Source of the DNA: a virus
Virus genome (UHGV): UHGV-0132373
Length of the DNA: 29,781 nt
Strand: one strand, 5' to 3'
Below are positions 27,081-29,072 of the stretch, piece by piece; position 1 is the stretch's first letter; every line of letters starts with the position of its first letter. A program made the translations under genes and the position numbers. The notes under the pieces are model-generated. The model had not been told where the DNA came from. It did not search any database and was given only the letters and a program-made list of their open reading frames with translations.

Positions 27081-29072
27081 ATGACAGACATTACAGCCAA
27101 TGTGATCGTATCGATGCCTTCGCAACTCTTCACTATGGCTCGTTCTTTTAAAGCCGTAGCCAATGGCAAAATTTATATCGGTAAAATTGACACTGACCCG
27201 GTAAATCCTGATAACCAGATTCAGGTCTATGTTGAGAACGAAGATGGTTCTCACGTTCCTGTTGCACAGCCAATCGTCATCAATGCCGCTGGGTATCCAG
27301 TATATAACGGACAGATTGCCAAATTCGTAACTGTGCAAGGCCATTCTATGGCTGTTTATGATGCATGTGGTGCGCAGCAGTTCTATTTTCCAAATGTGCT
27401 GAAGTATGACCCGGATCAGTTAAGGCAGGAGTTAGCAAGTTCAGGTGATGATCTTGGAGATGCATTAATAGCAGTAAAACAACCATTCACCTTGTCAATA
27501 AGAAGGACGCAGCATCAAAAAAATGCCGAGCACATTAGTGTTCGTGATTTTGGTGCAAAAGGAGACGGCATAACAGATGATACTGTAGCAATTCAAAATG
27601 CTATTAATGCAGTACCAGAAGGGGCTATACTTGGATTTTATGGTGGTGAATTTGTTTTTGATAAGGTTGAATTGCTTAAGCCAATAACATTGGTTGGTGA
27701 TGCAACGTTAATTCACAACGGATTTAGAATAAAATCTAGCAGAATACGATCACTTTTATCTGGTGTTCAGAAATGCAAGGATTACTCCGAGTCTTCAAGA
27801 GCATTTTATTGCTATGCAAATGAAGACCAAAGAGATTATGACGATATTCAGATTTTATTTAATAGATTTGAAGGTTTCTTTTACTCTACGGCATTTGTTG
27901 CAAAAAACTATTATTTGGAGAATGACCCTAATTCAAGAATTGTCAAAAACACAAAAGTAATAGGGTGTACATCAGTTGCTCCTGATTCTGTAAATGCCGG
28001 TCATTTTCAACATATAGGCGTTACAAATGCTGAAGCATCACATAACTCAACTTATGGCGGACAAAATGCAACATCATACAACTTCATTAACCAGAATGGA
28101 TTTGTAAGGATTATAGGAAATTATGACCATAACAATAGCTATGGTTCATGTGAGCTTGAGAACTCAATGGTGAGTAACTCAGTCATATCAGGTAATACGT
28201 TTTCGTCATATTTATGGGTTGATGATACAAGTAATGTTACTATTTCTGGAAATACCGTTTCATCAAGGATCAAAGTAACATCGCAAACTGACGATGTTCA
28301 TAATATAACCATATCAGCAAATACCACAAAACGGATTACTATAGAGCAATTTGGAGAATCTCCGACAGGTCTGGTATATGGTGCATTAATTTCCTGTAAC
28401 ACTATTACTGGCGACAGTGATGGAAGTTCAGACATTTTATGTACGTCACTTGTTACAGGTGAAATTTCATCAAATTATTGTCATGGATCAGAAAAAAATA
28501 TATCAATTGTCCGCCTGGATTCTTCTGATATAACTGTTAGAAACAATAAAGGAAACAAAGGATTACTTACAATAAGTAACGATGGTGGAAGGATAATTGA
28601 ATATGGCAATGATTCTATGGTTCTGTCTGGAAGCATAGATAGCAGACATATACATAATTTATTACAACCAGACACATCGTATTTAGATCTACCGGGGAAA
28701 TATCTGCACGGAACTAAATATACTGGCAGTATCCCCCCCGGTTCCACAGGAACTGTATCACTTCAAATACCATCAGGGGCAAGCCTTGTTTTCAGGGGTG
28801 TTTCTATATGGGTTCTAATTAGAGATGTTAGCAATAACAATATATCGTCATTCAGAATTGATGGTTCATATAGAGTTGTTGGTGGAAGTGTTGGTCTTAG
28901 TTTTGCTGATGCTTATTCGAAACTCGGGGTGGATGCAAACTCTATAACAGTGTCAAACAATAACAGCACTTCTGACAATATCAGCATAGCAATTAAAAAC
29001 ACAGATTCATCAAAAACCCTTCAGGTTACTGTTATGCCGGAGGTTTCAAGCAGGTTAGGTATTGAGGAATAG
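27081..29072 (+). CDS. tailspike: P22-type N-terminal head-binding domain fused to a pectate-lyase-like beta-helix receptor-binding/depolymerase domain
   Basis: 663 aa; residues about 1-115 ([59 protein letters not shown]…NVLKYDPDQ) match the P22 tailspike head-binding domain. The rest is AT-rich, Asn/Ser/Thr/Ile-rich, with the beta-helix entry motif [25 protein letters not shown]. Confidence 0.9.

Follow-up and report, generated by a model that had tools for sequence, protein, structure and literature searches.

What determines the receptor of a P22-like prophage whose tailspike shares its virion anchor with P22 and little else, and how did such a gene arise? The question is raised by the last late gene of the viral genome UHGV-0132373, a DNA of 29,781 nucleotides (nt) that is called the window here. 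The gene is an open reading frame (ORF) at 27081..29072 on the + strand, which starts with ATG and encodes 663 amino acids (aa). A preliminary description, made from the sequence of the window, gave the same ORF and claimed that a P22-type head-binding domain was joined near nt 27420 to a foreign beta-helix domain, with a specificity for O-antigen or capsule different from that of P22. We found modular exchange of the receptor-binding domain (RBD) to be demonstrated directly, beyond composition. The gene as a whole is very probably best explained as an assembly of two modules, an anchor and a mobile low-GC cassette, and host associations give a slightly better than even chance that the receptor is a capsule.

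Anchor, junctions and composition of the tailspike gene

The whole window is 100% identical to a prophage in Escherichia coli SFAD3. In the RefSeq annotation, the late region of this prophage is ordered as terminase, portal, scaffold, P22-family capsid, gp4, gp10, needle and ejection proteins, and 3' of the ejection genes lie a small accessory island, arc/ant, the tailspike gene, a 100-aa ORF and chromosomal dacD. The tailspike gene is the final late gene, near dacD, and its 5' neighbor encodes the P22 antirepressor domains P22_AR_N and P22_AR_C. A late gene that follows the immI arc/ant region of a P22-like virion module has the genome position of a P22-type tailspike; the same anchor occurs in the same place after arc/ant in Sf6 tailspike gp14 (PDB 7sg7, 2vbk), P22 gp9, HK620 gp9 and the CUS-3 endosialidase tailspike. 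Judged by gene content and order, the window is a P22-like (Lederbergvirus-type) E. coli prophage, and the ORF is its tailspike gene.

The Pfam profile Head_binding (PF09008) covers aa 1-113 at 113/113 profile positions (E=1e-65; 219.4 bits against a cut-off of 24) and ends with the motif NVLKYDPDQ (aa 105-113; last base nt 27419), which the preliminary description had correctly taken as the limit of the P22-type domain. Over aa 2-113, identity is 75% with the P22 tailspike and 90% with the Sf6 tailspike; PDB entries 1lkt, 2vky and 7sg7 (P22, Sf6 and CUS-3-type tailspikes) align to this N-terminus, and the anchor DNA is 87-93% identical to that of CUS-3, HK620, Sf6, epsilon34 and other P22-like phages. 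This first module (aa 1-118) would be the conserved anchor that plugs the trimeric spike into a P22-type tail machine.

The remainder of the gene has other relatives. By megablast against 50,697 phage records, no record covered at least 80% of the tailspike gene. Gene nt 1-~350 match P22-like phages at 87-93%, with similarity ending at nt ~350-406, and gene nt 448-1992 match the Escherichia phages phiv142-3 (Uetakevirus, epsilon15-like) and EC.W1-9 at ~99%. Two junctions, nested and both base-sharp, delimit the exchange. The first (J1) lies at nt 27435, codon 119, where identity to the Kagunavirus-like metagenomic contig ERZ28596143 scaffold_5275 (P0053) rises from none to ~99% and is sustained to the end of the contig, through linker and RBD. 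The tailspike on this contig carries a PF18668 Tail_spike_N anchor, preceded by a lytic siphovirus tail module; its anchor and upstream tail gene match Kagunavirus/Guernseyvirinae-type siphoviruses DS8, Sf11, C1 and 64795_sal3. The second junction (J2) lies at nt 27533, codon 152, inside a stretch of 12 residues, where in ungapped register the identity to phiv142-3, EC.W1-9 and CE0007a passes from background to perfect. Similarity to the epsilon15-like versions extends beyond the stop codon; it crosses the spacer and fades only at 29370-29403, after most of the next ORF. Orf6 of phiv142-3 (MN187550; QGF19612.1) is 99% identical over aa 152-663, as are the spacer and most of the downstream ORF, whereas its N-terminal ~197-aa anchor (epsilon15-type) and the phage backbone are entirely different; the same likeness and differences hold for the RefSeq "glycosyl hydrolase family 28-related protein" of epsilon15-like E. 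coli prophages.

The same RBD is thereby found at ~99% on three N-terminal architectures (P22-type, epsilon15-type and PF18668-type). The cassette is 98.4-98.9% DNA-identical across three unrelated phage groups, whereas the nearest relatives of the anchor reach only 87-93% identity, which indicates recent horizontal transfer of the cassette. The split matches and sharp junctions bear out the exchange that had been proposed. The breakpoint given for it, about 27420, stands in so far as J1 lies 15 nt away, but it missed the second junction, which the compositional shift follows.

The linker between the junctions resembles the Sf6 tailspike neck at the protein level, and the likeness to Sf6 includes the neck and the first beta-helix rung, up to aa ~218. 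P22-like tailspikes share the design of a conserved anchor with an exchangeable beta-helix, but their catalytic domains show no sequence similarity to this RBD beyond the cap motif. An inverted repeat with a 7-bp stem (CGAGCAC-ATTA-GTGTTCG; 27527-27544, + strand) spans J2 exactly, the linker contributing the left arm and the shared cassette the right one, possibly by coincidence. The EC.W1-9 homologue (L002, 5418-7546) is annotated as two coding sequences, an "eliminase" and a hypothetical protein, and, aligned with the window, this tail-fibre gene shows one 1-nt gap, suggestive of either a frameshift or an error in sequencing.

Composition changes along the gene. GC content is 0.442 in aa 1-113, 0.412 in aa 114-151 and 0.360 in aa 152-663, against 0.484 in the remaining window, and the corresponding values at third codon positions (GC3) are 0.425, 0.316 and 0.242, against a mean of 0.496 in the other long ORFs. 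The distal part lies 4.2 standard deviations (SD) under 1536-nt windows elsewhere in the window for GC, and 3.2 SD under the other 22 long ORFs for GC3. GC3 is 0.397 over aa 1-151 and drops to 0.242 over aa 152-663 (Fisher p=3e-4), and Asn, Ser and Thr together make up 29% of aa 152-663 but 16% of aa 1-151. The maximum-likelihood compositional change point is nt 27569, and the shift tracks the second junction (27533), not the first (27435). An AT-rich, Asn/Ser/Thr-rich distal part had been described beforehand, and the windowed GC run and residue counts agree. Uniform composition together with end-to-end homology to a single known tailspike, the pattern named in the preliminary description as contradicting a chimera, was not found.

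The chimera itself adds no new principle. An anchor with an exchangeable RBD is the textbook route of podovirus host-range change, and the gene is a known kind of mosaic whose protein is already in databases with a correct generic name: the identical 663-aa protein is listed in NCBI/UniRef as "phage tailspike protein" on 46 contigs, and near-identical variants occur on hundreds of further contigs. The full-length gene was found as a prophage gene in 10 complete E. coli genomes, with no characterised tailspike among them.

Fold and putative active site of the distal domain

The distal part begins with a match to PF12708 (Pect-lyase_RHGA_epim) on aa 152-209 (44.8 bits against a cut-off of 27), the pectate-lyase-like entry motif that had been noticed earlier. 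Structure prediction, which had been proposed as a check, was carried out with AlphaFold on aa 114-663, using as alignment 39 homologues from a search over 1.84 billion representatives. The monomer model (pLDDT 90.6, pTM 0.83; the predicted local-distance and template-modelling scores) consists of a disordered neck (aa 114-147, pLDDT <50), a beta-helix (~151-518) and a beta-sandwich (~534-658). With a cap motif above threshold and a parallel beta-helix fold, the domain belongs to the pectate-lyase-like right-handed beta-helices.

The RBD family is modest, with 34 clusters at E<=1e-30 and 33-62% identity. Homologues in lytic phages include those of fBC-Eco01 (52%), St11Ph5 and ShWW44 (G7C-like; 47%) and Vectrevirus (46%), and further ones occur in Aeromonas phages (45-50%) and Arthrobacter phage tail proteins (core, 36-44%). 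The lytic-phage homologues share the beta-helix family and the core motifs NAGHFQ, TYGGxNATSYNF, NYDxxNxYGSxExEN and LWIDDSSNV, but they are too divergent for a shared specificity, and none has a characterised substrate; no substrate of any RBD homologue was found in the literature on UP11, St11Ph5 and group-2 capsule phages. Within the family, E360 is invariant, and D349, D381, D382, W379, N372 and N391 are conserved at 90% or more. These residues are 21-27 apart, about one helical rung, and should therefore line one face. We infer that E360, D381 and D382, with D349 and H308, form a candidate carboxylate active site, and that the distal domain degrades a glycan enzymatically. The beta-helix would bind and cleave a surface polysaccharide and so give the virion access to the outer membrane; both hydrolase and lyase are candidate chemistries.

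Foldseek returned only generic tailspike and depolymerase beta-helices at 10-17% identity. The highest fold similarity was to the A-module of AlgE4 mannuronan C-5 epimerase (2pyg), and identity to AlgE4, an alginate epimerase/lyase (8ja4) and the coliphage K5A lyase KflA (2x3h) is only 12-18%. A sequence-profile alignment with solved enzymes, made to place the active site, extended over the N-terminal cap alone. The AlgE4 catalytic motif YG(F/I)DPH(D/E) is not conserved in the RBD, where the family has NYD349-x with a variable position 350 (H/E/Q/Y/N/D). The protein has no Glyco_hydro_28 Pfam match at E<=1 and no GHG or RIK motifs of glycoside hydrolase family 28 (GH28), and only E360, followed 21 residues on by D381-D382, resembles its carboxylates. 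Because the AlgE4 catalytic His is not conserved and a GH28 profile match is absent, the domain was filed under neither family. The endosialidase profile PF12218 reached 19.1 bits, below its cut-off of 26.3, over 26 residues of generic cap only, and the model of aa 114-663 contains no beta-propeller. Alignments to PDB sequences of the P22 tailspike do not go beyond aa 116: in sequence, the distal domain is unrelated to the P22 endorhamnosidase, and its beta-helix shows no homology to gp9, whose catalytic site is E359/D392/D395. A beta-helix fold without similarity to the P22 endorhamnosidase indicates a specificity different from that of P22, as had been claimed.

Capsule and O-antigen as candidate receptors

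The kps site of SFAD3 (L018, 12172-30818) is a group-2 capsule locus. Its region 2 carries genes for a galactosyltransferase-like protein and for glycosyltransferases, wecB and wecC (synthesis of UDP-ManNAcA, the nucleotide-activated N-acetylmannosaminuronic acid) and a gene for a DUF6270 protein. O1, O2 and O83 are classic K1 serogroups. A K1 capsule was ruled out for SFAD3, as its region 2 has wecB/wecC and lacks neu genes. We surveyed 5426 complete genomes. The 8.4-kb region 2 of SFAD3 was present in 56 of them and the RBD in 37; 21 genomes had both, where an overlap of 0.38 would be expected (hypergeometric P=3e-34). Region 2 was found in 10/10 carriers of the P22-type gene and in 11/27 genomes with an epsilon15-type copy only. 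The association is not clonal, as carriers differ by about 2% in core flanks: IR53017 and VTB96816v are 2% divergent over 21 kb of core genome, and B1 (L022) is 1.9% divergent from SFAD3 in the kps flank, with a region 2 that is 99.9% identical. ATCC 8739, IMT16316 (presumably ST648) and one strain labelled ST131 have the locus too. This rare wecB/wecC group-2 K-locus is horizontally mobile.

The O-types of the hosts bear on the other candidate, namely that the distal domain is an O-antigen endoglycosidase as in P22, Sf6 and HK620, with the host O-type reporting its specificity. O1 and O2 O-antigens have related rhamnose-rich backbones, and the acidic core of the domain resembles tailspike and GH28 hydrolase sites. 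O-antigen specificity is the default expectation for P22-like and epsilon15-like tailspikes (PMC10408124), and two independent hosts are O2: SFAD3, whose wzx/wzy genes are of the O2/O50 family, and DE142, the host of phiv142-3. However, the identical tailspike protein is encoded in LD67-1, an O83 strain with the prophage at the same attachment (att) site, and in Ecol_881, which is O1. The RBD is 99% identical over aa 152-663 to the phiv142-3 receptor-binding protein (RBP) and falls into its already catalogued subtype, for which the RBD must be at least 30% identical. PMC10408124 lists members of this subtype, with 95% identity or more, in O5, O1, O102 and O51 strains and proposes that these have a receptor in common, for example a K antigen. 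The RBD is not tracked by O-type, whereas one K-locus is present in every carrier of the P22-type gene. Differing O-types with one shared K-locus make recognition or depolymerisation of a capsule likelier than O-antigen cleavage, which we regard as unlikely here. Of the two specificities that the preliminary description had left side by side, the host data favour capsule, and O-antigen less so.

On these associations, the odds lean marginally toward a ManNAcA-type group-2 K capsule as the receptor recognised by the cassette. The fuller proposal, for which the chances appear evenly divided, is that the cassette is a capsule depolymerase, possibly a ManNAcA lyase, for one uncommon group-2 K antigen, and a ready-made K-specific module that moves among a lytic siphovirus group and two genera of temperate podoviruses, with the conserved downstream ORF as homology arm. 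The uronate-active structural neighbors make a suggestive, but not specific, fit with a ManNAcA-type capsule. Unlike that of the P22, Sf6 and HK620 tailspikes, the substrate here appears not to be O-antigen; the tailspike may be capsule-directed, as that of CUS-3 is, but with a beta-helix in place of the endosialidase beta-propeller.

Several observations weigh against a capsule-specific enzyme. The hypergeometric P value ignores phylogeny. The SFAD3 capsule locus is absent from 16/27 of the genomes with only an epsilon15-type copy. At the kps site of RS571 (L020, 2371-29097), a frameshifted group-2 kpsM truncated by the insertion sequence (IS) IS5 is followed by an IS5-flanked group-3-type locus, an apparent IS-mediated replacement of the capsule locus in a lineage that kept its epsilon15-type prophage. 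KN13-4 has a different, intact group-2 region 2, and K1 capsule genes have been described in DE142. Flank divergence of at least 2% among B1, RS571, KN13-4 and SFAD3 places the exceptions in distinct backgrounds. That the exceptions form one capsule-switched clone was ruled out, with only 2/16 sharing the RS571 group-3-type locus.

Another common E. coli glycan, such as colanic acid, enterobacterial common antigen (ECA) or a biofilm exopolysaccharide, could be the target, the link with the capsule being ecological or indirect. ECA contains ManNAcA, the phi92 colanidase is among the structural neighbors, and infection by St11Ph5, which carries a 47% identical homologue, is independent of O-antigen; the 16 of 37 carriers without the capsule locus also fit this explanation. 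A ubiquitous receptor, however, would not give a 55-fold enrichment of one rare K-locus, nor its presence in all ten P22-type carriers across divergent backgrounds. A match to phrog_8280 ("colanic acid degradation") was considered as a substrate lead and rejected: it vanishes when the RBD is scanned alone and hence came from the N-terminal anchor. We consider a common glycan an improbable target.

It is very improbable that the protein serves the lysogen mainly as a host fitness factor for iron acquisition and growth in serum, as was proposed for the phiv142-3 orf6 homologue. According to PMC7724020, lysogen DE142 grew less well in serum and under iron limitation, and transcribed iutA less, once orf6 had been deleted, a phenotype unexpected for a structural tailspike. 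This phenotype came without a mechanism and could be polar or indirect; architecture, position as last late gene, anchor and fold are those of a structural tailspike, and IS1 disrupts the gene in 3 genomes. Lastly, the notion that the gene evolved as one unit without recent chimerism, its low GC reflecting an Asn/Ser/Thr/Ile-rich beta-helix, is refuted: beta-helix domains are indeed Asn/Ser/Thr-rich, full-length copies occur in ten genomes and PHROG profile phrog_20231 aligns with the protein end to end, but GC3, largely free of amino-acid constraint, falls from 0.40 to 0.24, the 99% identity to phages with unrelated anchors starts at base-sharp junctions, and anchor and cassette differ in their degree of conservation.

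Probable route of exchange, neighboring features and significance

The second module (aa 119-663) would be a horizontally mobile low-GC cassette of neck, right-handed beta-helix and C-terminal beta-sandwich. Uetakevirus prophages and phages carry it behind an epsilon15-type anchor (junction at codon 152), the Kagunavirus-like siphovirus behind a PF18668-type anchor (codon 119). Exchange most likely proceeds by recombination between phages or co-resident prophages. The right crossover would lie in the small conserved ORF located 3' of receptor-binding genes in several groups of coliphages, the left one at the anchor/neck boundary or in the beta-helix cap motif ISVxDFGAxGDG, which is conserved. 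Both left junctions are abrupt, J1 at a domain boundary and J2 at the widely conserved cap motif. On the right, the phrog_1443 ORF adjoins the tailspike 3' end in the P22-like phages Gally, HZ41 and 611R6, where its protein is 77-92% identical despite different tailspikes, and it also follows the receptor-binding genes of epsilon15-like phages and is present in many lambda-like coliphages. Conservation of this ORF and the gradual decay of identity within it look like a homologous crossover; the ORF may be a conserved recombination flank or a lysogenic-conversion or exclusion gene.

Transfer appears to have been repeated. Among ten copies, 72 sites vary, and differences are fixed by anchor type only within the first ~230 nt; 3' of these, the patterns of single-nucleotide differences are reshuffled between P22-type and epsilon15-type copies, which indicates repeated recombination and not a single event. 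Prophages with the P22-type chimera occupy at least 3 att sites (sbcB/dacD, ybhB/bioA and beside intS). Five genomes (SCZE5, Ecol_881, IR53017, CUVET19-970 and ECJXMCRH7) hold two RBD copies, whose identities were established for SCZE5: an epsilon15-type copy and an IS1-disrupted P22-type copy, in prophages ~155 kb apart. Both prophage types in SCZE5 mean that donor and recipient prophages coexist in one cell. The two copies differ at 38/1871 sites (16 + 22), which rules out recent gene conversion between them. The P22-type tailspike of SCZE5 is split inside the beta-helix by IS1A with a 9-bp target duplication (window-equivalent ~28580-28588; L012, 3024-3721). In ECJXMCRH7 and XH993 the match is split in the same manner, and an IS1A annotation lies beneath it. 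From this arrangement, the prophages of all three strains probably lack a functional spike.

Coordinates of the features in and around the tailspike gene are collected in Table 1. Elsewhere in the window, a second low-GC island (GC 0.36-0.38; ~24001-25356, - strand) lies between the DNA-transfer gene and arc/ant and contains a YafO-family type II toxin gene (PF13957, ~24353-24772) and two ORFs without a Pfam match; by its content, it looks like a toxin-antitoxin "moron" of the prophage.

Table 1. Features of the tailspike locus (window coordinates)
Feature	Position	Strand	Remarks
Terminator-like hairpin, strong (8-bp stem, T-run)	26888..26907	+	Between antirepressor (ant) and tailspike genes
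P22-family head-binding domain (virion anchor), aa 1-113	27081..27419	+	Pfam, PDB, nt identity
End of P22-type segment, aa 114-118 (LRQEL), up to J1	27420..27434	+	
Linker/neck, aa 119-151 (ending in NAEH)	27435..27532	+	Common to the Kagunavirus-like, not the epsilon15-like version
Right-handed parallel beta-helix, aa about 152-518, putative enzymatic RBD	27533..28634	+	Core H308, Y333, D349, E360, D381, D382
C-terminal beta-sandwich, aa about 534-658, with stop codon	28680..29072	+	Model secondary structure and confidence; part of the 99% shared cassette
Intergenic spacer, AT-rich, in shared cassette	29073..29148	+	
Terminator-like hairpin, weak, 3' of tailspike stop codon	29102-29119	+	Within shared cassette
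100-aa hydrophobic ORF, phrog_1443 (PHROG without assigned function)	29149..29451	+	Conserved right-hand flank

In the literature searched, we did not find the three-way sharing of the cassette with mapped junctions, the conserved downstream flank as a probable crossover site, or the association with one K-locus. The locus is an unusually clean example of modular exchange, with a ~99% cassette in three unrelated phage groups, nested junctions, a right flank and co-resident donor and recipient. It also provides a concrete receptor lead, a ManNAcA-type group-2 capsule, for an RBP subtype left unexplained in the literature. Should the capsule proposal hold, the "multi-serogroup" puzzle of the phiv142-3 RBP subtype (PMC10408124) would be resolved, and the P22-like tailspikes would include a capsule-directed one that is built on a beta-helix and not on an endosialidase. 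K-types could then be predicted from prophage tailspikes, and the domain could be grafted onto phages or tailocins aimed at lineages of extraintestinal pathogenic E. coli with this capsule.

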